Below are positions 17,533 through 39,496 of a stretch of DNA of 64,000 nucleotides, piece by piece. The stretch's first letter is position 1. The number at the start of each line of letters is the position of its first letter. Position numbers and translations under genes: made by a program. The stretch is from a phage: NCBI GenBank assembly GCA_019385495.1, contig GCA_019385495.1_4102.1, one strand, 5' to 3'. The notes below the pieces were generated by a model. It made no database searches and was not told the DNA's origin. It was given only the letters and a program-made list of their open reading frames with translations.

Positions 17533-17636
17533 TTCATTTGAAGACATATTGTGGAGTTCTTAATAAATACTTTTATAAGAATAATAATACTTTTTATTAA
17601 ATTAAAAAGAACTCCATGTGTTATTTCAGTTTTTCG

Positions 17637-24771: not shown

Positions 24772-25104
24772 ATGGATTTAAAGCCAATTGTGGTTAACAA
24801 ATACAAAGAACCGTATGATGTGTATATTGGACGTGGGTCTAAATGGGGAAACCCATTTACCCATATTAAAGATAAACAAACCAAAGCCGAGTTCATTGTT
24901 AGTACAAGAGAAGAATCAATTGAAAAATTCAGAGAATACATTATTGAACGTATTTCTTGTGGAGAAGTTAAGATTGATGAATTACTTGAACTCGCAGGGA
25001 AACGCCTTGGTTGTTTCTGTAAACCAAAATCATGTCACGGCGATGTTCTTGTCGAAATAGTGAGTGCAATATTAGATGAATTACCAGACGATAATCAAGG
25101 ATGA
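24772..25104 (+). CDS. DUF4326-like protein
   Basis: YIGRGSKWGNPF and LGCFCKPKSCHGDVL motifs as recalled for this family. Confidence 0.45.
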   Translation: MDLKPIVVNKYKEPYDVYIGRGSKWGNPFTHIKDKQTKAEFIVSTREESIEKFREYIIERISCGEVKIDELLELAGKRLGCFCKPKSCHGDVLVEIVSAILDELPDDNQG

Positions 25105-25546: not shown

Positions 25547-25550
25547 CATA

Positions 25551-25573
25551 AGCACCCGTTGGGTGCTTTTTTA
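25551..25573 (+). terminator. intrinsic terminator
   Basis: AGCACCC-gtt-GGGTGCT followed by TTTTTT. Confidence 0.7.
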
Positions 25574-25622
25574 TTATGTATATAAATACATTAACTAATA
25601 TCTAATTTATAAGGGATATATA

Positions 25623-28319
25623 ATGTCAAAGAAAATATATGGTGGCTTAGATGTCACACATAATGTGACAGTTAATGGTAAAAGAACAATTCAAGGAATA
25701 AATGAACAAGTTTTTGATTCCAACGGTAACTTGGAATTAGATACTTATTCCAGAGATGAAGTACTAGATATAGTAAGTATGATACCAATCTCCCATTATG
25801 GTTCACAAAACTATCTACCTGCGGGTGTTTCTGGGGATTTCAATGGTGCATCAGAAAACCAGTCACAACGTAGAAATAAAATTTTATTAGAAAACGATGG
25901 TACACTAGTGCTTTTACGTAGTGGGACAAACGGTAGTGTTGAGGGATTATTTTATTCATATTTGGCTAACGCATTATCAGTTGATGACATGAGCCGTACA
26001 ATTAACACCAGTCGTCAATACAAGCCTGGGTTTTTTGGTTCAAATAGAGTTGCGATTGGTTTATACAATACTGATCCAAATATTTTACTCGGTAGATATA
26101 TTGATACTTCTAACAGTACTAATGGTTTGTTCATATCAATTACCAATGGTACATTAGATGATAAATTGCATACTGGTTTTTTCGTTAACCAAGCAGATAT
26201 ATCACCGGAAGGTGGTATTGAATATGCTATGATGGCAGAAGATGGTTCTATATATGTTTTTAGCGTACTTAATGAAAATAACCAACTACAATTAGTTGTT
26301 GTTAAAGTTGTTTATAATATAAGCAATGGTACTTATACTGCAACTCGAATTACTGGATGGACTACTAAAACATTTTATAACACGACATATTCTGCACAAA
26401 ATAATATGGTTATTACTAATCAGGTAAGATCAACAAATATTGCTGATAAACCTTATGCTTATGTCCCACAAAATCTACGCGGTATTGGGATTTACATGAC
26501 ATCAATTGATTTATATGTTGCACAGCAGCCAGGAACGCAGAATTTCCGCTTTAGAATGAACGGGGACGCTTGGTTTACAATGGCAACATATAATACACGT
26601 CCACAGCATAGTTACAGTTTTGTGTTCAATATGAGTACTAAACAATGTACATTAGATGCGGGTAACGATATTGGTTCATATCAAGCACCATTAGTTATAA
26701 CTAATACTGGTTCGGCATTAGTTCCTACTGGTAACGTTTTAAATAACGATCCATTGTATAACCATGCAAATGCAAGAAACATTTATAGTTCATATTTTTA
26801 TTTAAATTCAGGTGAAGCATTTTGTACTGCATGTCCAAACTTAGCAGAACCATTACTTATGCAAAAAGCTAAGTTTCCTATTCAAATAGTTTATAGTATG
26901 CTGAATGTCCGTGCTGTACTTTCTACTGACTTCAAAGGTGGTATAGTTCGCCCGTCTTTTGGTTCAGCGGTTGGTTCATTTATTAATGGTGTAGAATTAC
27001 TACCAGATAACAGTACTAAACAATATTCACGTGCATCAGGTAGTGGTGGATTTAGACCATCATATGCAGTTCATAAAAGTACTCCTAATTTTACATTTAA
27101 ATCATTATCTTTAGGAACAATACAAGGTTATGAACCTACAGTTGAACGTGCTAATGTTGATGATAATGCAAATAATAGAATTTTTATTAGTAGTATTTCT
27201 GGGTCAACTGTCACAACCAATGGTGGTATTTTTATGGTTGGGCAACGTTATTCACAATCATTATCCTATGATAAAAACTTAAATGGCACAGGAATTATAA
27301 GCGTTACACAATCAGTACTGGACAATTTTAGAAATACTGAATATGCCAAAGTTCTAAGTGATTGGAATTTATCAGCACAAGCATACCGTGATATGACACT
27401 ATTTGTTCCACAACAAACAGACATTCCAGCTTTTGTTATGTTGAGTACAATTACTAATGATTATAGAAACTATATTAGAATTGCTGAAGTTAATGTCAAT
27501 ACTAGAGTTGGTAATATTACATCTATTACATTTAAGCGTTTAGTACTTGAGAATACGTATGGTGATAACTTTACACCAACTGGGAATGGTTCGATTGCAT
27601 CTTCTTCTGTTGGTTTGACAATATATGATGGTGGTTCATTCTACTTCATTGGTGGTTCTGATCCATTATCACATCCAACAATAGGTAATACTGCAACTCA
27701 TCAATTTAGAGCATATGTAACTAAATCAACTGCACAATTTACAAGTTTTATAATTACTGGATCTCATGCCAGTTATGAACAAGGAAGTCAACCAGCAGCA
27801 TTACCTGGTATTGGTTTTGGAATTTTTGAACCAATGGATTACTCAAATAAAATGACATTCAAAAAATATGGAACAACGATTGCAGACTATAATAACTGGA
27901 CTGCACAAGGTAGCCCAATTAACGTAGTATCCCAGGACGTTGCTCAAGGGTTTATTGTATATTTTACAGAGGAAACACCAGTTATTCTTTCAGGTAAGTC
28001 ATTTTCACTACCAGTTTCAAATATTGATTTGAGAACTATTAAGTCTAATCCAGCAAATACAACATTTTATGTATATGTTAAATTGGAACAAGGATTGGCA
28101 AACTATTACATAACTACTGATGTTATTTCTGAAACAGGAACAACTGCATATAATATTTTTTGGATAGGTACAATTCAAACTAATGCAATTCAAATCGAAA
28201 CAATTAATATACAAAAACGTTCCCGTTTAGATATATTTGGTGCTTCACTTGAATCAGCAGGTTCATCGTTCCCAGTTAGCTACGGTCTACCATCACAAAC
28301 AGGAACCATAAACTGGTAA
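25623..28319 (+). CDS. tail-fibre-like protein (898 aa)
   Basis: Large Ser/Thr/Asn/Gly-rich protein sharing N- and C-terminal modules with two downstream paralogs; TATAAATA at 25581. Confidence 0.6.
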   Translation: MSKKIYGGLDVTHNVTVNGKRTIQGINEQVFDSNGNLELDTYSRDEVLDIVSMIPISHYGSQNYLPAGVSGDFNGASENQSQRRNKILLENDGTLVLLRSGTNGSVEGLFYSYLANALSVDDMSRTINTSRQYKPGFFGSNRVAIGLYNTDPNILLGRYIDTSNSTNGLFISITNGTLDDKLHTGFFVNQADISPEGGIEYAMMAEDGSIYVFSVLNENNQLQLVVVKVVYNISNGTYTATRITGWTTKTFYNTTYSAQNNMVITNQVRSTNIADKPYAYVPQNLRGIGIYMTSIDLYVAQQPGTQNFRFRMNGDAWFTMATYNTRPQHSYSFVFNMSTKQCTLDAGNDIGSYQAPLVITNTGSALVPTGNVLNNDPLYNHANARNIYSSYFYLNSGEAFCTACPNLAEPLLMQKAKFPIQIVYSMLNVRAVLSTDFKGGIVRPSFGSAVGSFINGVELLPDNSTKQYSRASGSGGFRPSYAVHKSTPNFTFKSLSLGTIQGYEPTVERANVDDNANNRIFISSISGSTVTTNGGIFMVGQRYSQSLSYDKNLNGTGIISVTQSVLDNFRNTEYAKVLSDWNLSAQAYRDMTLFVPQQTDIPAFVMLSTITNDYRNYIRIAEVNVNTRVGNITSITFKRLVLENTYGDNFTPTGNGSIASSSVGLTIYDGGSFYFIGGSDPLSHPTIGNTATHQFRAYVTKSTAQFTSFIITGSHASYEQGSQPAALPGIGFGIFEPMDYSNKMTFKKYGTTIADYNNWTAQGSPINVVSQDVAQGFIVYFTEETPVILSGKSFSLPVSNIDLRTIKSNPANTTFYVYVKLEQGLANYYITTDVISETGTTAYNIFWIGTIQTNAIQIETINIQKRSRLDIFGASLESAGSSFPVSYGLPSQTGTINW

Positions 28320-28330
28320 AGGATTACATA

Positions 28331-28918
28331 ATGGCATATAAAATAAGAGCAGACCTTAAGGCAATGCAACAAGTAACAGTTCAGGGTAAAAGTACTGGTC
28401 TTGGTGTATTAGGTAATAATATGACTTATTACCCAACAAATTCAAATGGGGAATGTACATTCCCCTCTATTACCAAAGATGAAGTTAACTTTATTGTCAA
28501 TGGATTACCACTTACACAATACGGAGAATTGTATGATGACGCTAGTCTAAATATTACTTCATCAGGCTATAGTCTTACATTTAACAGACAGATACCATCA
28601 TTTATTGGTGGTTATCTTTATAAATTTCCAGCAGTTTCTATTTTTGCTTCAACTGTTTCATCTGGAACACAAACACAATACGTATATGCAACGTTAGTTC
28701 TCGGTGAACCAATTTATAAAATATCACCAACACAAATACAAGAATCTGAAATTATAATGTTTATTGGAACACTGACCGTTGGTACAAGTGGTATTACAAA
28801 TATAAACATTAATAAAGTATCCAGATTTAGTACATATAGACCTAGTGTTACACAAAAAGGTTCTTCATTCCCAGTCAGTACTGGAAAACCATCAGAAACT
28901 GGTACAATTGGTTGGTAA
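28331..28918 (+). CDS. short tail-fibre-like paralog (195 aa)
   Basis: C-terminus GSSFPVSTGKPSETGTIGW matches GSSFPVSYGLPSQTGTINW of the upstream gene. Confidence 0.5.
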   Translation: MAYKIRADLKAMQQVTVQGKSTGLGVLGNNMTYYPTNSNGECTFPSITKDEVNFIVNGLPLTQYGELYDDASLNITSSGYSLTFNRQIPSFIGGYLYKFPAVSIFASTVSSGTQTQYVYATLVLGEPIYKISPTQIQESEIIMFIGTLTVGTSGITNININKVSRFSTYRPSVTQKGSSFPVSTGKPSETGTIGW

Positions 28919-28934
28919 ATTAAGGAAAAGAAAG

Positions 28935-31664
28935 ATGTCATCAAAACGAATTATAGGAAGTGCCGAGATCCTTGGGAACTTGGCAATTGGACAAAGGTAC
29001 GCTATGCGTACTTTTAATGGAACCTCACCGAATGCCAATACTGGAATTGTTCAATATCCAATATATAAGCGTTCAGAAGTTCAAAGTATTTTAGATATGT
29101 TGCCTATATCACGTGTAGGAGAAATGGATTACTTACCATTAAACGTAAGTGGGTCGTATGAAGGTGCTACACCTATGTCAAGTGACCAAGTAGTTCAGCC
29201 AACAATTATTGAAGATGATGGAACCGCCGTTGTTCTGCGTAGCGGAACCAATGGTAGTACTAAAGGTTTTTATTATTCATTTATACGAGAACTCCGAAAT
29301 ATAACTATGATTTCACAAGAAAGTGTTATTTCAACCAATTCAATGTATAAACCTTCAATTATGAGTAGTACTGAAAATATTAAGTATTTTATTGGCTCTA
29401 ATGGTTATGAGATGCTTGGATGTTTAAGTACTGAAGATAATTATATTTTTACTATAACCAATGGCACATTTAACGAAATATCACATATTCATGCTAAAGT
29501 GCCAAGTACTTCTTTTGGTAATGATATGCCAATATATACACATATTGTTGGGACAAAGGTTTATATTTGGTGTAAAGATAAAAGTGTTTCTAATTTAGGA
29601 TTAGCACTTTCAATTTATACAGTAGAGCTAAGTGATGTGAAAGCAAGCTCAATGGCATCATTAACAAAAGTTACTGGGTTATCAGGTCAAACTGTTCGAA
29701 ACACAAGTTATTCTGCATCTAATAACATAAGAGTGTTCGATAAATTATATAGTGTTGGTACTAGCTCGGATTCATTATTCGAAGTTACATCACCAGTATC
29801 ACGTGTAGAATTTTCAGACTATACAGACTTTAACATTCAAGCCAACGTTAGTCCTGATTTATCAAAAATACGTGTAACTTTATATCCAACACATCGAATG
29901 GTTACACCTTTGTATATTTCAACAGTTTATGGTACTGGAATAAGTTTTGTTTATAATATAAACTCAAAATCTATGTCACTAGATGGTAGTGCTCGTGCAC
30001 CTGCAACTGTTTCATATAATAATGGATTTCAAGTTTCTAACCCATTTGAAATTAATATGGTCAACTTCACAGGGACAACTGCTGCTGGTGTATTAGGAAA
30101 CGCAGGTGGTTTATGTCAAACTAAAGATGGTTTGGTATTTGCATCTAAATTTAGATGGAGTTCAACTGAATTTTATGGTCTACAACGATATAAGGTTAGT
30201 GGTACACCGTTTGATTCATGGGTTGCCAGTACTAGAACCGCAAGTAACGTTATAAATGCAAACGTTTTACCAGTTTTTGGTAGTGCTGTTGGTGCAAACC
30301 TTTTAGGTGTACGTTTCATCGATAATAGAAAAATATTATTAGCATGTTCTGGTACGTATGATGATGTAACATATAATTATAATAATACTGTTTTTTCTGA
30401 AATAGGTTCACAACCAACATATCAATATAACTCAGTTCAAAATAATACTACATTAAATGGTTTTGCTCCACAATCTAATCGTAAACAAATAGGCGATGAT
30501 TTTACATACACTGCTATGATTTCTCTTGTTGATACCGATGGTAGTGTTAGATGCTATGGAACATCATTCATTGAAGGTGTATATAAAACAAGTGGTGGAT
30601 TATTAAATCCAGATACTTTAGAATTTGATGAAACATATACAATAGAACCAACGGTATTAGAATCATTAAAACAAGATATTTTTGCTAATATAGGAAACTC
30701 TGGCATTGTTGGTACACTATCTGGACAAATTGTATTATATTATGTACCTGATAATACTTTTTCTAAATCCATCGCAGTAGTTTCAGCATATAATCTTAAC
30801 AATAACCAAGGTTATGCAATCTATGCCGAAGTTGATGTTGTATTATCTGGAACTAACATAACTTCAGCTACATTGGTAAGTACTAGATATGAGACACTTA
30901 GTTCTGTTACAGGAATTATTACTGAAGCATATATGAAACGTTGTACTGGTCTAACAGTTGCTAAATATTCAGGATTTGGTTACATTGGTGTTGATGCCGT
31001 TCATCAATTTTCACAACCAGGTAATGCACAATTTAAGATGATGATAGCTAAAACAGTAGATGGTGTCATAACATCAAATCGTTTTTTATCATCTAGTTAC
31101 ATCCAACTCGGTGCAGCATATCAACATGGTGTTATTCCTGGTGTTGGTTTTGGATATTACAATTTTCAAGATTCTGACTATCAAACCAAATCTGTATTCA
31201 GCGTTTTTGGTACAACATCTGCTGAAATGGATGGTTTAATTAGCGGAAATGGTAGCGTTAAAGAAAAGATTGTGGTAGTATCACAAGACGTTGCACAAGG
31301 ATTCTCAGTGTACTTTACACGTGAAGTTCCGGTGTTTTTAGGTGGAATTTTCGACAGACTACCTATACAAAGTGTAGATTTAAGTACTGTAAAAAGTAAT
31401 CCAGCTAATACTACGTTCTATTTGTATATACAAATGAACAGGAATACTAAGAAAGCTTCATATGTTATTAGTACTGAAACTATTGATGAATCTTTAACTA
31501 GCACTTACATTGGTAAGATAGTTACTGGAACTTCAGGAATAACTTCAATTGATACAGAAAAAGTAACTCGTTTTTTGACATATCGTCCAAGTACAACGAA
31601 ACGTGGTTCAGCGATACCTGCCAGTACTGGTGTACCATCAGGTCCAGGTACACGTTGGAAATAA
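28935..31664 (+). CDS. tail-fibre-like protein (909 aa)
   Basis: Shares VVSQDVAQGF..VYFT and C-terminal modules with 25623-28319; RBS AAGGAAAAG; ORF-track start 28845. Confidence 0.6.
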   Translation: MSSKRIIGSAEILGNLAIGQRYAMRTFNGTSPNANTGIVQYPIYKRSEVQSILDMLPISRVGEMDYLPLNVSGSYEGATPMSSDQVVQPTIIEDDGTAVVLRSGTNGSTKGFYYSFIRELRNITMISQESVISTNSMYKPSIMSSTENIKYFIGSNGYEMLGCLSTEDNYIFTITNGTFNEISHIHAKVPSTSFGNDMPIYTHIVGTKVYIWCKDKSVSNLGLALSIYTVELSDVKASSMASLTKVTGLSGQTVRNTSYSASNNIRVFDKLYSVGTSSDSLFEVTSPVSRVEFSDYTDFNIQANVSPDLSKIRVTLYPTHRMVTPLYISTVYGTGISFVYNINSKSMSLDGSARAPATVSYNNGFQVSNPFEINMVNFTGTTAAGVLGNAGGLCQTKDGLVFASKFRWSSTEFYGLQRYKVSGTPFDSWVASTRTASNVINANVLPVFGSAVGANLLGVRFIDNRKILLACSGTYDDVTYNYNNTVFSEIGSQPTYQYNSVQNNTTLNGFAPQSNRKQIGDDFTYTAMISLVDTDGSVRCYGTSFIEGVYKTSGGLLNPDTLEFDETYTIEPTVLESLKQDIFANIGNSGIVGTLSGQIVLYYVPDNTFSKSIAVVSAYNLNNNQGYAIYAEVDVVLSGTNITSATLVSTRYETLSSVTGIITEAYMKRCTGLTVAKYSGFGYIGVDAVHQFSQPGNAQFKMMIAKTVDGVITSNRFLSSSYIQLGAAYQHGVIPGVGFGYYNFQDSDYQTKSVFSVFGTTSAEMDGLISGNGSVKEKIVVVSQDVAQGFSVYFTREVPVFLGGIFDRLPIQSVDLSTVKSNPANTTFYLYIQMNRNTKKASYVISTETIDESLTSTYIGKIVTGTSGITSIDTEKVTRFLTYRPSTTKRGSAIPASTGVPSGPGTRWK

Positions 31665-31670
31665 ATTTAA

Positions 31671-31709
31671 AGCTCGTCTATTGACGGGCTTTTCTTTTAT
31701 GTGTATAAT
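31671..31709 (+). promoter_or_regulatory. terminator hairpin overlapping a sigma70-type promoter
   Basis: AGCTCGTC-tatt-GACGGGCT plus T-run; TTGACG (31681-31686), 17 nt, TATAAT (31704-31709). Confidence 0.55.
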
Positions 31710-31731: not shown

Positions 31732-32298
31732 ATGGTCAAATCTTTATTACCGCCACCAAAACGTCACAAAATCAAAGAAATGAAAGAACAACGTACATTA
31801 AAGATGTACATCAATTTAGTTAAGTTACTGTGTAAAAGTCCATCGCTCAAAGCAGAGTTTAAAACTGATGATGACCGCAAAGCACTAATTGAGATGAAGT
31901 ATATGCTCAGTAAAATGTCCTTTTACAAATTTGTAAAAGAATACGCATCTGACCCATTTAGTCCTCGTTGGAGAGCCAAACCAAGAGAGTATTTTTACGG
32001 TGGTTCATATACGGATCTCATTCAAGACACAGTGATGGGAGTTGAATTTGAAATCGATTATGAGCCGAATGGTGTGGAAAGCTGGCCGATTGAGAAACGT
32101 TTACCAAGTGAAGAAGAAATTTATGTTTATGCAAGAAAACTTTCAAATTTCAGTTCAAGAATTACTCTAGGCAATTTAGATTCATTTATTATTTTCTATA
32201 CACGTGTTGGTGTAGATAAAATGGTAACTAAACTCAATGAACTTTCATTACAACAAAAACAGATTAATGCATACAAAGACATTACTGATTTATACTAA
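31732..32298 (+). CDS. hypothetical protein, tandem paralog 1
   Basis: Shared D-R/K..Y-K/M-LSK motif with the next two genes. Confidence 0.45.
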   Translation: MVKSLLPPPKRHKIKEMKEQRTLKMYINLVKLLCKSPSLKAEFKTDDDRKALIEMKYMLSKMSFYKFVKEYASDPFSPRWRAKPREYFYGGSYTDLIQDTVMGVEFEIDYEPNGVESWPIEKRLPSEEEIYVYARKLSNFSSRITLGNLDSFIIFYTRVGVDKMVTKLNELSLQQKQINAYKDITDLY

Positions 32299-32304
32299 TG
32301 AGGA

Positions 32305-32823
32305 ATGGATATGTTTTTTGGATCAGTTGGAAAACAAAACAGTACTTTAATTTGGCATGAAATTATCTTTAAAATTATATCTAAAAGCTACTCACTAAAG
32401 GATATTATCACCACAGATAATGATAGACGTATCCTGTTAGATGCAAAATATAAATTGAGCAAACACCCTTTACTTTCTTTAATCATTGATTACGTTAATG
32501 ATTATGAATCTAGTCGTTGGAAGTGGGAAGACGGCGGTTTATTTCGTGGAAAAACATTCTACGGTGCGGAACGATATGTTTTCAGTGATACATCAAATGG
32601 CGTTAAGTTTGTTATTAGAAACTTTAACTCCAAAGAAAATGATTATCTTGAAAGTGGAGTGAAAGTATATATCGATAATAGCAATGTACTAACATATGAC
32701 GAATCACTAATTATGTTACAAATAATGCGTGGAGTTGAAGGTGTAAGAAACAACCTTACTAAATTGAAAATCCAGCAAAATGATATACATAATAGACAGA
32801 AAATTAAGGGTTTATATAAATGA
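32305..32823 (+). CDS. hypothetical protein, tandem paralog 2
   Basis: Paralogous to 31732-32298. Confidence 0.45.
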   Translation: MDMFFGSVGKQNSTLIWHEIIFKIISKSYSLKDIITTDNDRRILLDAKYKLSKHPLLSLIIDYVNDYESSRWKWEDGGLFRGKTFYGAERYVFSDTSNGVKFVIRNFNSKENDYLESGVKVYIDNSNVLTYDESLIMLQIMRGVEGVRNNLTKLKIQQNDIHNRQKIKGLYK

Positions 32824-33329
32824 TTTCATTTTTCAAAAAGAAACAAAAAGTTGATGAAACCGGATTAGAATCGTTTCTATGGACTCTTATCATCAAAAAA
32901 AGTCCATTGATAAAAGAATATGCTATCAATGATGCTAATAGAAAAACTATCATTGAATACAAATACGAATTATCAAAATGTGATCCAATCGTTTATCACT
33001 TTGCGAAGTACTGTTCAAAAAATTTATCGGATATCACAATCGACCACGAGTCAGTCCCGATGAGTTTTCCTTATGGTGATTGGGTAGATACTTTTGATAT
33101 TTTTGATGGGTCAAATGGTTTCAGTTTCTTTTACTCGTCAAATAAAGCAAATGTTCGTATTAAAACAGACATAGGTTGGACACAGCATAGCTCAAATAAA
33201 GAAGATTATAATTTATTAGCTGACGTATACCGAAGTGTGAAGAATTCAAAGGATATTGATGAAAGAATTAAAAAGCAAAATCGTATATCTTTATCACTTG
33301 AAACATACAAGTCAAAGTATGGTGGTTAA
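32820..33329 (+). CDS. hypothetical protein, tandem paralog 3
   Basis: Paralogous; ATGA overlap. Confidence 0.45.
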   Translation: MISFFKKKQKVDETGLESFLWTLIIKKSPLIKEYAINDANRKTIIEYKYELSKCDPIVYHFAKYCSKNLSDITIDHESVPMSFPYGDWVDTFDIFDGSNGFSFFYSSNKANVRIKTDIGWTQHSSNKEDYNLLADVYRSVKNSKDIDERIKKQNRISLSLETYKSKYGG

Positions 33330-33331
33330 CT

Positions 33332-33733
33332 ATGACTACAGTTGATGATATCTATAGCACTATACGCAATATGAGTACAGATAGAAAAGTATTTGGCGAT
33401 AAAGAAAAATCTAAGTGTTATGGTATTGATTCTTTTGATATAATTTCTTATGAGTACAATACAAGTGGAAATAGTTCACTGAATATCGTCTGTCCTCGTG
33501 ACCCAGAAAATAATTTTATGTATGTTGAAATTAATAATGATGGAATGTTTTTTACAAAAGTTTTCAAAGGTGGAATTAATTACGAACCTATTGAATGTAT
33601 GAATGAAGAAACTTTCTTTCAAGAAGATACAATTATCAATTTAGGTTTTAGTTTTGATGATTATAAAACATTAGAACATGACTTTAATCGTTATTATAAT
33701 GGTTTCTTAAAGGAGTTAACAATTTATCTATGA
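33332..33733 (+). CDS. hypothetical protein
   Basis: ORF. Confidence 0.4.
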   Translation: MTTVDDIYSTIRNMSTDRKVFGDKEKSKCYGIDSFDIISYEYNTSGNSSLNIVCPRDPENNFMYVEINNDGMFFTKVFKGGINYEPIECMNEETFFQEDTIINLGFSFDDYKTLEHDFNRYYNGFLKELTIYL

Positions 33734-36000
33734 ATAACCAATATATTGAACAAACAATAGTGAAACACTTGGCTGGGTCACAAGCCTACGGAACCAGTAC
33801 ACCTGAAAGTGATACTGATTATCGTGGTATTTTTCTTGCTAATAAAGAATTTATTCTTACACCCTTCTATAAGGTCAAAGAGGTAGCTGATAAAAGCGAA
33901 GAAGATACTAAATTCTATGAGTTGAATCAGTATTTAAAATTATACACTGAAGCTAACCCTAATATTCTTGAATCACTTTGGGTTGAACCTGAACACATTG
34001 TTGAAAGTACTGAAATTTATGACTATCTTCGTTCATTTAACCAAAAACTTCTTAGTTCCAAGATTGCATTTTCATATACTGGTTATGCATATAATCAGAT
34101 TAAGCGTATGACAAATCATCACGGTTGGATGGATAAAGAGCGTATTGCTGAAAAACGATTAAATGAGATTTTAGAAGAACACCCTGTCGATGAGGTTCTT
34201 GCGTGGATGTATGATTCATTCCCACAGTATCTTGTTGAACGTTTAGATACATCGAACTTACATCCATTTAATGCTAAAAAGATTGATTTTGAAAAATATA
34301 TGCGTGATACATCATTGCAGTTAGTTTCGAAAAATCCATTAAAGCAATATCATTTCGTAAGATTAGTGCATAACTACACTACTGAAAAAATTCTTGATCG
34401 TGATTTCAATTTATTGAATTTTAATAATGGTTATGAACTAATTCATTACGGAGAAAACATTTTTGCGATTGTTAAAAATCCGAATGAAAGTACTATCAAT
34501 GGTGATGGTTCATTGCGTTATTTTTCTAAAGAGCGTAGTACTGAAGAGTTGAAAACTAAACCAGAACTAATTGTCAAATTTAACGAAAAAGAATATCAGG
34601 AAAATAGTGAGAATAGGAAAAGTTATCATAAATGGAAAGAAAATCGTAATGCCAAACGTGCTATTTTAGAATCACAACACGGATACGACTGTTATAGTTT
34701 TGATACTGAATTCTTAACTAAAGATGGTTGGAAATTATTTGACGACATCACTGATAAAGATCTATTAGCGACTTTTGATAAAAATCACAAAATAGAGTAT
34801 CAAAAATACACAGAACGTTTTGATAATTTATACAATGGAAATCTTTACCATTTCACTGGTCATCACCAAGATACGTTAGTGACTGCAAATCACAGAATGT
34901 ATGTTAAGAATTATGCACGTAATCAGCAAAAAGATATGTCAGAATGGCAATTTGTTGAAGCAGCACAATTAAAAGAAACTTATAAAATTTTGAATACATT
35001 ATCTCCAATAACAAAGGAATATAAAGATAAAAAAAGCCCAATTGACTATATGGATATCAAAGTTTATCTTCAACTGATGGGATGGTTTCTTTCAGATGGT
35101 AGTATAAGTTTTAGAGATGGAAAAGTAAAATCATTATACATTTCACAATCAAAAGCCAGTCCTGGTATGCGTTGTGCTTTATCAAAATACAAACAATCTG
35201 GACAAATGATATTTCAGGAATACATTAACGAAAGAAAAGATTACCAATCAAATGATGAATCAAGATTTGTATTTCCACGTGAAGTGGCTGAAGCATTATA
35301 TAATGATTGTGGGCATGGATCATATAATAAAAGAATTCCAAATTGGGCATTTGATTTAACAAAACGAAAAATGGATTTTCTGCTAAAAGGTTTGTTGCAA
35401 GGTGATGGTACAAAACGTAATTTGGTCAATCATGATGACACATATGTATATTATACTGCTAATTCATTATTAGCTGATGATGTTCAAAAACTAGCATTAC
35501 TGTGCGGTTATGAAACATCGAAATGGGGACCATACACAAACGAAACTAATTTTGGTTATATTGAAATGTATCAAGTTCATATCAATATGAAACCTAAATC
35601 AGAAAAAATAAACATGAAACAAAATCTTGAAAAAATTCCAGTAACTAACTACAGAACTGTTTGTTTTTCAGTTCCGAACGGTACACTGGTTACTCGTAGA
35701 AATGGTAAAACTGCATTACATGGAAACTGTAAACATGCTATGCACACAATCCGACTTTTGAATAGTGCAGAAGAAGCATTACAAAGTGGAATTATTCAAG
35801 TTAAACGACCAGATGCACAAATGTTGATGGATATTCGTAATGGTAAATGGAAGTATGAAGAAGTCTTAGAATATTTCGATGATAAAGTACAATACATTCG
35901 TGATGTTCTATATAAGAAATCAGTACTTCCTAAAAAACCAAACATCAAGTTAGCATCAAAAATTATCATTGATATTAGAGAAATGCAATGGTATAAGTAA
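33730..36000 (+). CDS. nucleotidyltransferase-fold protein interrupted by an intein
   Basis: N-terminal GSQAYG..SDTDYRG minimal NTase motif; internal intein-like segment of about 346 aa. Confidence 0.6.
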   Translation: MNNQYIEQTIVKHLAGSQAYGTSTPESDTDYRGIFLANKEFILTPFYKVKEVADKSEEDTKFYELNQYLKLYTEANPNILESLWVEPEHIVESTEIYDYLRSFNQKLLSSKIAFSYTGYAYNQIKRMTNHHGWMDKERIAEKRLNEILEEHPVDEVLAWMYDSFPQYLVERLDTSNLHPFNAKKIDFEKYMRDTSLQLVSKNPLKQYHFVRLVHNYTTEKILDRDFNLLNFNNGYELIHYGENIFAIVKNPNESTINGDGSLRYFSKERSTEELKTKPELIVKFNEKEYQENSENRKSYHKWKENRNAKRAILESQHGYDCYSFDTEFLTKDGWKLFDDITDKDLLATFDKNHKIEYQKYTERFDNLYNGNLYHFTGHHQDTLVTANHRMYVKNYARNQQKDMSEWQFVEAAQLKETYKILNTLSPITKEYKDKKSPIDYMDIKVYLQLMGWFLSDGSISFRDGKVKSLYISQSKASPGMRCALSKYKQSGQMIFQEYINERKDYQSNDESRFVFPREVAEALYNDCGHGSYNKRIPNWAFDLTKRKMDFLLKGLLQGDGTKRNLVNHDDTYVYYTANSLLADDVQKLALLCGYETSKWGPYTNETNFGYIEMYQVHINMKPKSEKINMKQNLEKIPVTNYRTVCFSVPNGTLVTRRNGKTALHGNCKHAMHTIRLLNSAEEALQSGIIQVKRPDAQMLMDIRNGKWKYEEVLEYFDDKVQYIRDVLYKKSVLPKKPNIKLASKIIIDIREMQWYK
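34690..35727 (+). mobile_element. intein with LAGLIDADG homing-endonuclease motifs
   Basis: Starts CYSFDTEF (block A-like), VTANHRMYV (block B TxxH), LMGWFLSDGS and LKGLLQGDGT (LAGLIDADG-like), ends ..ALHGN followed by Cys. Confidence 0.55.
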
Positions 36001-36014
36001 CATATACAAGTGTA

Positions 36015-36206
36015 ATGGTACTAAAAATGCCATTACACTCAATAAATACTCAATATAAATTAACACAAGGATTAAGTATGGCACAACAAATTTTCACAGA
36101 TATCCACACTACCGGAGTTATTAAATTTCAAAATAATTTTTCAGGTGCAACTGGTGTAGACATTAAAAATGATGGTTTTAACATTATCAGTACTCGGATC
36201 TATTGA
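36015..36206 (+). CDS. hypothetical protein (possibly 5' part of a frameshifted gene)
   Basis: ORF overlapping the next by 38 nt in another frame. Confidence 0.3.
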   Translation: MVLKMPLHSINTQYKLTQGLSMAQQIFTDIHTTGVIKFQNNFSGATGVDIKNDGFNIISTRIY

Positions 36207-36706: not shown

Positions 36707-39496
36707 ATGTTAAACAATAATATTGATAATATTGTACAACTTCTTTATGGGCATCACAAATTTATTGAAAGAAATACTGGTGATACAATAGACCCAACAG
36801 TACAACATTATGTGGTGAATAATCAGGGTGTTTTGGCGAACAACCGTCATTTTATTAACTATTCTGCAATGGAAGGTCAACCAAACGGTGACGGGACAAC
36901 AGAAGGTCAAAGTCTATTAATTTTAGGATACATTTATGCGTATCTGGCAACAAATGATCCAATGTTTTTAGATAAAGCCAAATGGTACTGGGATGCATAT
37001 CATCAGTACTTTTATGCTGGGCGTGAATTACCAGACCCACCAACCCCACTGCAATGTAACTGGATAGTTAATGCCAAAGAACCGATTTTGGCTAACTGGC
37101 CTTTAGCTGATGATGGATGGCCTACACATGGTGGTTTCAAGGGTGTAGAATTTACATTTACAAATGGACAATGTAAAATACCACATGGTGCACCTTATTA
37201 TGGTCAGTTCTTGGATAAAGTAACATTTGCATTCAAAGGTGCTTTAGCATGGAACCAAATAAATGCGTCAGTAAAAGCTTTATTACCAGATGGTAGTGTT
37301 GATTGGGATACACCAGGTGAACAATATGATGTTGACTGGATTATTGATTTCATGGGTAGAAAAATCGACTGGGATGGTAATATTTTAGCAGAAGGTTTTG
37401 ACGAATCTGAAAAAGGAACTGTTCAATTAAAGAATACAACAATTAATGGTGTATATAAATTAAATTTTGCTAATCGTCAACCAGTAGAATATGGTGGTGT
37501 GATAATTCAACGAAATGAAATGCAACACAACCGCCCTCTTCATGTTCCAATTGATTTGGAATTTGCTGATAACGCATCAGATGCAGAATTATGGTTTAGT
37601 GATGCTTCTTATTTGTTATATAAAATAACAAAAGAAAGAAAACATTATTTGGGTTGGAAATGTTCACTACTAACGTGTTATGCTTATGGTGATATTGACT
37701 CCAGAGATAAATTTTTCAGACAAAGTACAATTGTAACCACACCATTCACTGATGGTATTTCCTATGAATATTTTTATCCAAGTGATGCTATTGCTAAGTT
37801 TGGTAGAAATTCTCTAGGATATATTACTATCAGGCAAGACCAAAGTGCACAAAGTACAATGGAACAACAAGCTATTTGGTTCAGGGTCAATGCTGATTCT
37901 AAATTACTTGTAGACTATGGTGGTGTATGTGATGATGGTAAGCCGTTATCATTTAAACCAGTACTGGAATTGTCAAAAACAAAAAATGACCATGATGTTG
38001 TTCGTTATCGTTGTGGCTTACCGGAAAGTAAAGACCAAAATATCACACATTCATTAACACCTTTAAGTGCATTTGTTAGAGAAAAGAAAGCAGATGGTTC
38101 CCCTTATATAATTGCTGATAGTAGAATTGTTGTTCCTTATGGTGCAGCTACGTCCGAAATGATATATAGTACTGATATATTAGTTACACGCCGCGATACC
38201 ATTAATCAGTTAGTTTGTGGTGAAGATGATGGTGCTGTTATTGGATTTTGGCTATTAGCAACAAATAAGTCTGAAGTTAAATCTTTTACATATCGTTCAT
38301 ATGAAGATGATTACAATATAAGAATTGTAGATGATAATGGTTGGAGATGGTGGTGGATGATTCCTGCAACACACGGGGAATGGACTACAATCACACTAAG
38401 TTCCGATACATTACGTTTATCTGGGTATCAGCCAAATCATCCAAGTTCTGACCCAAGACCAGATGCACCAGTTTATAGTGAACTAGAAGATATTACTATT
38501 TTACCTGATACAACCCCAGTAGATGGTGTTGCTGCAATAATTGATTGGTATTGTATTAATGACATTCCAGAATTATACACGGATGCTGACGGTGATGACT
38601 ATACTATGACATTTTCAATAACAATTGCAGGTGAATCACCATATACTGCACAGTTAGGGGATTGTGTAATCAAGGATTATTTGTTAAACTCATTGCATTA
38701 CACACCAGGAACAATACCATTTTCTAACATCACTGACCCGTATGCGAACCAGTATTCAGGATGGCGTGGTTTACCGTATCCAGGTTATCAATATCCTGTG
38801 ATATATTGTTTTAAAGACCAGCCGGTAGATAACACACGCTTAGGAAACATGTTAAGCTTTATGAAAGATTCCCAAACATGGTTTACTCAACAATTCGGTA
38901 CTGTTGGTCCGTGTGCACAAGCATATGTTTGGAACCGCTGGGATAACTTAAAATATGGTGAACCAGATACATTTACTATGCTACATTGGGGTGATCAAGC
39001 ATGGAGTGGGTATGAACCACGTGCGTTCTTTGGGGCTGCCAGAGCATGGCAAGAACTCGCAGAGAGAGGAATTGAACCACCAGCAGATCTTGTTGAATTT
39101 TGTGAGAATTGGATTCACTTTTTAATTCAATTTCAAAAAGATAATGATGGTCGTTCACCAACAATCTTCAATAAAGATGGCACAGTTGAAGGTCCAGATT
39201 GGGACTTTACAGGTCATATGTGTGGGTTGTGGTTAGCTGGGGCTTGTGCTGCTGGATTGGCTGGATGTAAAATAGAAGGTCTAACAACACTCGCTGATAA
39301 CTTAGTTCTCGAACTTCAAAAGAATTATGTTATTGTAAATCCAGGTTCACCAATGAATGGTTCATGGAGTCCAGCAGTCAGAGAAGGTACTGATAATGGT
39401 ATGTTTTTTGGTTTCTGGGCAGGTGAGATTATGCGTGGATTGGGATTATACTCAATGTACCGCTTAAACACACCAAATCGTTTCCGTGATTTATAA
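36707..39496 (+). CDS. large hypothetical protein (929 aa), Trp-rich
   Basis: Long ORF; function not recognised. Confidence 0.5.
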   Translation: MLNNNIDNIVQLLYGHHKFIERNTGDTIDPTVQHYVVNNQGVLANNRHFINYSAMEGQPNGDGTTEGQSLLILGYIYAYLATNDPMFLDKAKWYWDAYHQYFYAGRELPDPPTPLQCNWIVNAKEPILANWPLADDGWPTHGGFKGVEFTFTNGQCKIPHGAPYYGQFLDKVTFAFKGALAWNQINASVKALLPDGSVDWDTPGEQYDVDWIIDFMGRKIDWDGNILAEGFDESEKGTVQLKNTTINGVYKLNFANRQPVEYGGVIIQRNEMQHNRPLHVPIDLEFADNASDAELWFSDASYLLYKITKERKHYLGWKCSLLTCYAYGDIDSRDKFFRQSTIVTTPFTDGISYEYFYPSDAIAKFGRNSLGYITIRQDQSAQSTMEQQAIWFRVNADSKLLVDYGGVCDDGKPLSFKPVLELSKTKNDHDVVRYRCGLPESKDQNITHSLTPLSAFVREKKADGSPYIIADSRIVVPYGAATSEMIYSTDILVTRRDTINQLVCGEDDGAVIGFWLLATNKSEVKSFTYRSYEDDYNIRIVDDNGWRWWWMIPATHGEWTTITLSSDTLRLSGYQPNHPSSDPRPDAPVYSELEDITILPDTTPVDGVAAIIDWYCINDIPELYTDADGDDYTMTFSITIAGESPYTAQLGDCVIKDYLLNSLHYTPGTIPFSNITDPYANQYSGWRGLPYPGYQYPVIYCFKDQPVDNTRLGNMLSFMKDSQTWFTQQFGTVGPCAQAYVWNRWDNLKYGEPDTFTMLHWGDQAWSGYEPRAFFGAARAWQELAERGIEPPADLVEFCENWIHFLIQFQKDNDGRSPTIFNKDGTVEGPDWDFTGHMCGLWLAGACAAGLAGCKIEGLTTLADNLVLELQKNYVIVNPGSPMNGSWSPAVREGTDNGMFFGFWAGEIMRGLGLYSMYRLNTPNRFRDL

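Follow-up and report, generated by a model that had tools for sequence, protein, structure and literature searches.

Tandem paralogs of an Asteriusvirus jumbo coliphage with a shared, shoulder-like C-terminal module and a body-less middle member

The receptor-binding proteins (RBPs) of phages p2 and 1358, SPP1 gp22 and TssK share a trimeric 'shoulder' domain that docks onto the baseplate, accepting a Dit/TssG loop (PMC7291167). Among the jumbo phages, SPN3US gp168 (188 kDa) is a baseplate/fibre protein of the gp131 paralog family (PMC5105663), and phiKZ gp131 has been localised at the baseplate periphery by immunogold (as cited in PMC5105663). Jumbo phages of the Rak2/PBECO4 group are under development against E. 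coli, Salmonella, Cronobacter and Erwinia, and their host recognition is largely unknown. Here we describe three consecutive genes of such a phage, located at positions 25,623 to 31,664 of a 64,000-nucleotide (nt) stretch (the window; GenBank assembly GCA_019385495.1, contig GCA_019385495.1_4102.1), which belongs to an Asteriusvirus jumbo coliphage of the PBECO4/121Q type. The genes encode proteins of 898, 195 and 909 amino acids (aa), hereafter p898, p195 and p909, and are labelled 'hypothetical protein' in every annotated Asteriusvirus record. Their 6-kb region is 99.4-99.7% identical at the nt level to those of PBECO4, phAPEC6, JP4, SP27 and UB, and 94% identical to that of 121Q.

Taken together, the analysis tips the balance somewhat towards a reading in which the three genes form one late unit and encode old tandem-paralog, low-copy virion proteins, likely to serve as accessory host-adhesion proteins at the baseplate or tail periphery. 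Paralogy and virion presence were known from earlier publications; no description of the shoulder-like fold, of the split-domain cassette or of the conserved 'headless' paralog was found in the literature examined.

An earlier reading of the sequence alone (the sequence-only reading) had described three tail-fibre-like genes with common N- and C-terminal modules, the short one being a minimal N-plus-C version. All the open reading frame (ORF) positions and motif strings that it quoted were present exactly, and pairwise alignment bore out the shared modules, with similarities far beyond chance. Concerning the two large proteins, the shared ends were confirmed, but homology through the centre had been missed: p898 and p909 gave a single continuous alignment (p898 residues 2-898, 27% identity, E 7e-64), and their bodies remained similar when aligned alone (E 8e-8). 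Identity was 33% in the N-terminal part, 22% in the body, 51.5% in the C-terminal sandwich and 37.5% in the tail. The minimal character of p195 also held, as it matched both ends of both large proteins; its C-part aligned with p909 (43% over 120 aa, E 7e-24) and p898 (36% over 125 aa, E 9e-17), and its N-part with p898 (34% over 85 aa, E 5e-7) and p909 (E 0.001). Of all window ORFs, these three alone contained the C-terminal peptide G[ST][SA]xPxSxGxP and the N-terminal motif (D/S)E(V)..I...LP(I/L)(S/T), and no relatives of the three proteins were found among the others. As candidates for further paralogs in the window, a 929-aa gp314c-like 'tail fiber' protein and an 887-aa sheath protein were rejected, showing no similarity.

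Phylogenetic trees of the separate parts were compared, using only clades that had been re-counted or were clearly supported. The body tree and the C-module tree gave the same paralog lineages, and the N-module tree (neighbour-joining bootstrap under a simple model, with some deeper-node supports unreliable after rerooting) firmly resolved only the clade of p195 and the middle paralogs. Since the bodies are homologous and the body and C-module trees share their lineages, we take the three genes to be old, diverged tandem duplicates and not mosaics. The features of the locus are as follows.

25550 to 25568, plus strand: terminator-like hairpin and T-run directly after nrdG (8-bp stem with 5 GC pairs, TTTTATT tail), upstream boundary
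25581 to 25588, plus strand: TATAAATA, T4-type late-promoter consensus between the first hairpin and p898, 35 nt before the start codon
25623 to 28319, plus strand: p898 (898 aa), paralog lineage A, virion protein (ORF, alignment, PHROG 3573, mass spectrometry)
25623 to 25742, plus strand: p898 residues 1-40, N-terminal adaptor segment common to the three paralogs (alignment)
25743 to 25820, plus strand: p898 residues 41-66, short helix and IPISHYG (LPxSxYG), proposed N-terminal half of the shoulder-like domain
25821 to 27902, plus strand: p898 residues 67-760, all-beta body resembling a propeller, where orthologs vary most
27903 to 28217, plus strand: p898 residues 761-865, shoulder-like beta-sandwich, the shared C-module
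28218 to 28316, plus strand: p898 residues 866-898, conserved C-terminal tail ending in GSSFPVSYGLPSQTGTINW, candidate neck or docking peptide
28331 to 28918, plus strand: p195 (195 aa), composed of adaptor, LPLTQYG, shoulder-like sandwich (residues ~73-162) and tail (residues 163-195)
28935 to 31664, plus strand: p909 (909 aa), paralog lineage B2, virion protein (ORF, alignment, mass spectrometry), counted from the ATG at 28935; the mechanical ORF opens at GTG 28845
Within p909, plus strand: N-part (residues 1-68) and body (residues 69-774)
31257 to 31562, plus strand: p909 sandwich, residues 775-876
31563 to 31661, plus strand: p909 tail, residues 877-909
31669 to 31692, plus strand: terminator-like hairpin with a 10-bp stem, 5 nt after the p909 stop, downstream boundary

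Published mass spectrometry (MS) places the two large proteins in virions, as the sequence-only reading needed. Purified phAPEC6 virions yielded gp323c, the counterpart of p898 with 893/898 identical residues (4 peptides at 5.6% coverage; PMC7247149), and liquid chromatography-tandem MS of JP4 detected both JP4_233 (p898) and JP4_235 (p909), each with 2 peptides and ~2% coverage and at similarly low abundances (1.8e6 and 2.3e6; PMC12648861 supplement). In virions of GAP32, the orthologs of the middle and third genes, GAP32_144 and GAP32_145, were identified (PMC5259590 supplement S5). The phAPEC6 record (MK817115, 10709-14042) contains p195 and p909 in intact form (195/195 and 908/909 identical residues) but annotates neither, listing a 37-aa ORF inside p909 instead; their absence from the phAPEC6 proteome is for that reason uninformative.

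Conventional searches gave little on fold: no Pfam match rose above noise for any of the three proteins (E up to 1), and PDB sequence/profile searches with p898 and with the A1 and A2 profiles found no meaningful match to solved structures. Strong full-length matches were obtained to PHROG families of jumbo-phage proteins of unknown function, p898 (E 2.1e-273) and p909 (E 7.7e-267) matching PHROG 3573 and p195 (E 4.4e-115) PHROG 26864; all three also matched PHROG 7449. An AlphaFold2 monomer model of p898, built on a 40-sequence alignment, was confident (predicted local distance difference test score, pLDDT, 85.8; predicted template modelling score, pTM, 0.80) and all-beta, with low confidence restricted to residues 1-61 and 870-898 (pLDDT <50 for residues 1-40) and a helix at residues 44-51. 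Its only fold matches were beta-propellers. An internal duplication of two related propellers was also considered for the body and was rejected (hhalign of residues 62-445 against 446-758, probability <1%). The modelled core of p195 (residues 70-160) was likewise confident (pLDDT 85-95). Thus, the fibre-like shape implied by 'tail-fibre-like' was not recovered, the p898 monomer model being compact and all-beta and having no fibrous shaft.

In its modelled fold, the C-module belongs with the shoulder-type beta-sandwiches. The receptor-binding character proposed by the sequence-only reading is therefore retained in part, in that the shared module resembles a domain of RBPs; as a 'shoulder', however, this module looks made for attachment and trimerisation and not like a receptor-binding tip. 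Because the shoulder domain is what docks such proteins onto the baseplate, the conserved C-module is, by analogy, more likely an assembly domain. The proteins end 30-33 residues after the sandwich in p898, p909 and p195. This tail has a pLDDT of ~30 in the p898 monomer, yet it is among the most conserved segments (0.83, a value shared with residues 781-810); as it is disordered in the monomer model and links to a further domain in some relatives, the conserved Trp-ending tail may be a neck or docking peptide.

The same module was then followed through the wider family. A profile built from the p195 family and the two large C-modules matched 541 cluster representatives among 1.84 billion (E up to 1e-3), and lengths and spacings were analysed for the 147 representatives retrieved from the top 150 profile matches. 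Roughly half of these (72/147) were proteins of 850-1050 aa with the module at the C-terminus, and a third (49/147) were only 130-260 aa long; 132 of 146 ended within 12 aa of the module, and a few carried an extra domain after the conserved tail. The distance from LPxSxYG to the sandwich took two values: short members had a median of 17 aa, large and extra-large ones 741-760 aa, whatever preceded the motif. These two discrete spacings, and the fact that chimallivirus homologs retain the motif, suggest that the helix/LPxSxYG motif and the C-terminal sandwich constitute one domain, into which the ~725-residue body would be a discrete insertion. Four short shoulder-module relatives (P0130, P0138, P0076 and P0092) have an 'NPH(G/N)VT' type sequence in their N-terminal segments. 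In two of them (P0130 and P0138) the conserved tail is followed by a further 135-280 residues, giving the p2-like order shoulder, neck, head.

Relatives were found by tblastn in 171 phage records, with a genome >200 kb in every record among the 60 of 171 that were listed; represented are Rak2-like genera, Agricanvirus, Seoulvirus, Miamivirus, EL-like phages, Goslar and Aeromonas phages, under annotations such as 'virion structural protein', 'minor tail protein' and 'tail protein'. In Seoulvirus and Miamivirus the cassette (motif, body and sandwich) lies behind an N-domain homologous to phiKZ gp131 residues 9-350; Miami_56/57 and SPLA3_172/173 carry this gp131-type N-domain upstream of the cassette, and profile matches to the Miami and SPLA3 proteins start only at profile positions 43-57. 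Judging from these alignments, the gp131-like N-domain replaces the ~40-residue adaptor in the phiKZ-like relatives. Direct kinship with phiKZ gp129, gp131-135, gp145 and gp146 was rejected, as BLAST and the A1 hidden Markov model gave nothing better than E 0.13; the chimallivirus intermediates alone link the window proteins to the phiKZ gp131 family, via different domains.

The origin of p195 could be traced in the related genomes of GAP32 and CBB (both Mimasvirus) and of Yersinia phage fHe-Yen9-04 (Eneladusvirus), in which nrdD-nrdG is followed by three full-length paralogs (895-946 aa); the CBB authors had listed CBB_147-149 as a paralog group. A 195-aa middle gene is confined to the Asteriusvirus-type clade. 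The large protein p898 grouped with GAP_143, CBB_147 and Yen_g137, and p909 with GAP_145 and CBB_149. For p195, both ends found their best match in GAP_144, the middle paralog (39% and E 1e-11 for the N-part, 44% and E 1e-27 for the C-part); the middle paralogs GAP32_144 and CBB_148 are 912-916 aa long. The N-part of the p195-family profile scored 63 bits on GAP_144 and CBB_148 versus 10-27 bits on the other paralogs, the N-module tree united p195, GAP_144 and CBB_148 with 100% support, and all three begin with MAY and have a 5-6-residue insertion in common. In the body tree, GAP_144/CBB_148 branched off before the p909/GAP_145/CBB_149 clade (99-100% bootstrap), and therefore the middle lineage had a body before Asteriusvirus and Mimasvirus diverged. 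The matches at both ends, the N-module tree and the body tree together identify p195 as the ortholog of the middle paralog and as a deletion derivative lacking ~720 residues.

The short gene has since been maintained. Its ratio of nonsynonymous to synonymous substitution rates (dN/dS) against Turkey5 and 7t3 was 0.27 and 0.34, comparable with its neighbours although with synonymous divergence (dS) near saturation; across 12 clusters with identities as low as 46%, its length remained within 195-202 aa, and distant metagenomic contigs retained the gene order nrdG, large, small, next. These comparisons indicate that p195 is under purifying selection, and dN/dS and the conserved length rule out a decaying remnant.

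Nearby genes all lie on the plus strand, and nrdD and nrdG (anaerobic ribonucleotide reductase) are immediately upstream. Gaps between the three genes are 11 and 16 nt, and a Shine-Dalgarno sequence precedes each gene (for p909, AAGGA ahead of the ATG). The TATAAATA copy at 25581-25588 is the sole plus-strand copy in the window, where both strands together hold 3 copies versus 12.5 +/- 3.6 expected; the shorter ATAAATA occurs 9 times versus 43 expected, its plus-strand copies being at 17563, 25582, 36042, 58488, 61562 and 62404. Three of these (25582, 58488 and 61562) lie 41-57 nt upstream of virion-protein genes, namely p898, the tail sheath (start 58545) and a homolog of the MS-detected JP4_286 (start 61604), and the one at 36042 precedes an unidentified start. 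In CBB, ATAAATA was described before structural genes, together with a gp55-like sigma factor (CBB paper). The depletion and the positions of ATAAATA/TATAAATA fit counter-selection of a T4-type late promoter; a scan for sigma-70 promoters was uninformative (34 sites versus 40 expected). Given the short gaps, ribosome-binding sites, flanking terminators and late-promoter motif, the three genes are likely co-transcribed late as one terminator-bounded unit.

The genomic position offers a further hint. In RaK2 (NC_019526, 22765-45683) the post-nrdD-nrdG locus holds a ten-gene tail fibre/tailspike cluster, ORF525-534, of which ORF526-534 were found in virions by MS; no homolog of the three paralogs was found in RaK2. 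ORF525-534 lie mostly on the opposite strand. As this tailspike cluster occupies the same place, the post-nrdG position may, on purely positional grounds, behave as a host-recognition cassette in this phage group.

These observations can be joined in a single scheme. Each protein would comprise a ~40-residue N-terminal adaptor, a p2-RBP/TssK-type 'shoulder', a body and a ~30-residue tail ending in Trp, with p195 body-less; in the large proteins the shoulder would be split just after LPxSxYG by the ~700-residue all-beta propeller-like body. The adaptor and the shoulder-type socket would mediate assembly, and the body, the fastest-evolving part, presumably contacts the host, probably a surface glycan. 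The common ancestor of Asteriusvirus and Mimasvirus had three full-size paralogs, the middle one of which lost its body in the Asteriusvirus lineage through a ~720-residue internal deletion. Persisting as a 'headless', shoulder-only protein, p195 probably still sits at the same interface for assembly, where it would either hold a structural position (adaptor or placeholder) or join p898 and p909 in a mixed oligomer. An improbable extension would make the motif and sandwich a portable shoulder socket across jumbo phages, with the three paralogs co-assembling as an asymmetric, two-bodied heterotrimer in which p195 is the third shoulder subunit, or with p195 homotrimers competing for the same baseplate sites and so setting the number of adhesins per virion.

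Several points weigh against this scheme. The N-part and tail are of low confidence in both models, so packing of the N- and C-terminal halves into one domain was not seen directly; the MS support is thin (2-4 peptides, 2-6% coverage); CBB_147-149 went undetected in CBB MS, and JP4_234 (p195) was absent from the 49 detected JP4 virion proteins though present in the search database; and TATAAATA is a consensus match only.

The absence of p195 from the JP4 list bears on the rival that survives best, in which p195 would be a non-virion assembly factor that mimics the shoulder and tail of its neighbours, chaperoning or templating their oligomerisation or capping docking sites, and is then released. 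Consistently with this role, the p195 gene shares an operon with the two large genes and lies between them, the protein retains exactly the presumed interaction parts, and short shoulder-only proteins are common in the family (the 49 of 147 representatives of 130-260 aa among the top 150 matches). However, its full-length ortholog GAP32_144 is a virion protein by MS, at 21 kDa and low copy number a protein easily escapes detection in a run that yielded only 2 peptides for each of its large neighbours, and p195 showed no similarity to fibre chaperones (Tfa, gp38, gp57), no Pfam match and only noise in the PDB profile search. The JP4 data neither confirm nor exclude such a role, and we consider it somewhat unlikely.

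A second rival concerns the bodies, which might be enzymes degrading surface polysaccharide (glycan depolymerases, sialidase-like or GH43/GH32-like hydrolases, or lyases). Among known folds the model is best matched by GH43, GH32 and GH130-type enzymes, sialidases/pseudaminidase and ulvan lyases; the tailspikes encoded at the syntenic RaK2 locus are of depolymerase type; and five polar residues (R99, H183, S448, S494 and R509) are invariant across 40 sequences, including p909 and the distant homologs P0055-P0060. We judge an enzymatic body unlikely, and less probable than the assembly-factor role of p195.

The sequence-only reading itself had favoured modular receptor-binding tail fibres, in which constant N- and C-modules flank unrelated central domains swapped by recombination. 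It is true that conservation is higher at the ends than in the centre, whether paralogs or orthologs are compared (among orthologs the bodies evolve faster than the ends), and that the wider family combines the cassette with different N-termini and C-terminal extensions. However, an exchange of central domains is contradicted by the homology of the p898 and p909 centres (full-length E 7e-64; bodies alone E 8e-8) and by the agreement of the body and C-module trees on lineages, with no mosaicism, the N-module tree being firm for the p195/middle clade only; moreover, the p898 model is globular and not fibrous, and the C-module resembles an attachment domain and not a tip. Modularity survives for the wider family, whose members attach different N-termini and sometimes additional C-terminal domains to the cassette, but not among these three genes, for which swapping is quite improbable. 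That the proteins form or anchor the hair-like whiskers or the capsid/sheath decorations of phAPEC6 and CBB is hardly more credible, for although both phages bear hairy appendages at three sheath rings and on the capsid whose genes are unassigned, and p898 is a low-copy virion protein with no assigned position, the hairs are ~119 nm long and flexible while the p898 model is compact and globular, the three paralogs also occur in GAP32, which the CBB authors treated as possibly whisker-less, CBB MS did not detect them, and relatives are fused to phiKZ gp131-type baseplate N-domains.

With the accessory-adhesin reading at the baseplate or tail periphery, which we retain, three virion proteins so far labelled 'hypothetical' gain a fold and a plausible role, and they are tied to a family of >500 clusters across unrelated jumbo-phage lineages, including the phiKZ-like SPN3US gp168 group. 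A compact cassette made of a shoulder socket and an insertable body could guide host-range engineering, and the headless paralog would amount to a natural experiment in which the assembly interface is selected independently of the body.

Other features were recorded around the locus. Upstream, a DUF4326 gene (E 6e-24) lies between nrdD and nrdG at 24772-25104, and a 90-aa ORF overlapping it in another frame is probably spurious. Directly downstream (31732-33329) are three small tandem genes (188, 172 and 169 aa), mutually paralogous (E 6e-15, 2.5e-4 and 1e-3), whose products had no Pfam match. The 929-aa protein encoded at 36707-39496 corresponds to phAPEC6 gp314c, annotated 'tail fiber protein' and MS-detected, also with no Pfam match. 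Finally, the ORF at 33730-36000, an RlaP-type nucleotidyltransferase, has a ~346-aa insertion at 34693-35730 relative to phAPEC6 gp316c (410 aa), with flanks that align with gp316c at 99% and 91%; the inserted segment, which includes a LAGLIDADG domain, starts with Cys behind ...GYD and closes with ...HGN|C, and is apparently an intein that is absent from phAPEC6.

Compared with known systems, the closest relatives are GAP32_143-145, CBB_147-149 and fHe-Yen9-04 g137-139, true orthologs or paralogs at the same locus, in which all three genes are full-length. The SPN3US gp168/gp131 family (PHROG 7449, E 5e-38) likewise consists of virion proteins and tandem paralogs, and the Seoulvirus gp168-type protein SPLA3_172 (1727 aa) and Miamivirus gp056/057 hold the cassette (A1 profile, domain E 4e-17 to 8e-21); unlike the phiKZ gp131 family, the window proteins do not have the gp131 N-domain (~residues 9-350, common to gp131-135). 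The tail fibre and tailspike clusters of RaK2, K64-1 and phiKp24 are also multi-gene host-recognition sets of virion proteins, that of RaK2 in the same genomic position, whereas the RaK2 cluster is unrelated in sequence, is of tailspike/depolymerase types and has ten genes instead of three. Classical fibres (T4 gp34-37, lambda Stf, T7 gp17) differ in their shaft, which is missing from the compact p898 model, and in their Pfam signatures, the window proteins having no fibre Pfam match. The window proteins resemble p2 ORF18 (PDB 2WZP), the 1358 RBP, SPP1 gp22 and TssK without any similarity in sequence; p2, 1358 and TssK have a continuous shoulder at the N-terminus, with neck and head after it, while the shoulder of the window proteins is apparently interrupted by a ~700-aa insertion, and these proteins end after a neck-like tail with no terminal head, contrary to p2-type RBPs. 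The set would work most like the baseplate-attached shoulder-type RBPs of the p2/TssK kind, and is evolutionarily tied to the SPN3US gp168 group.

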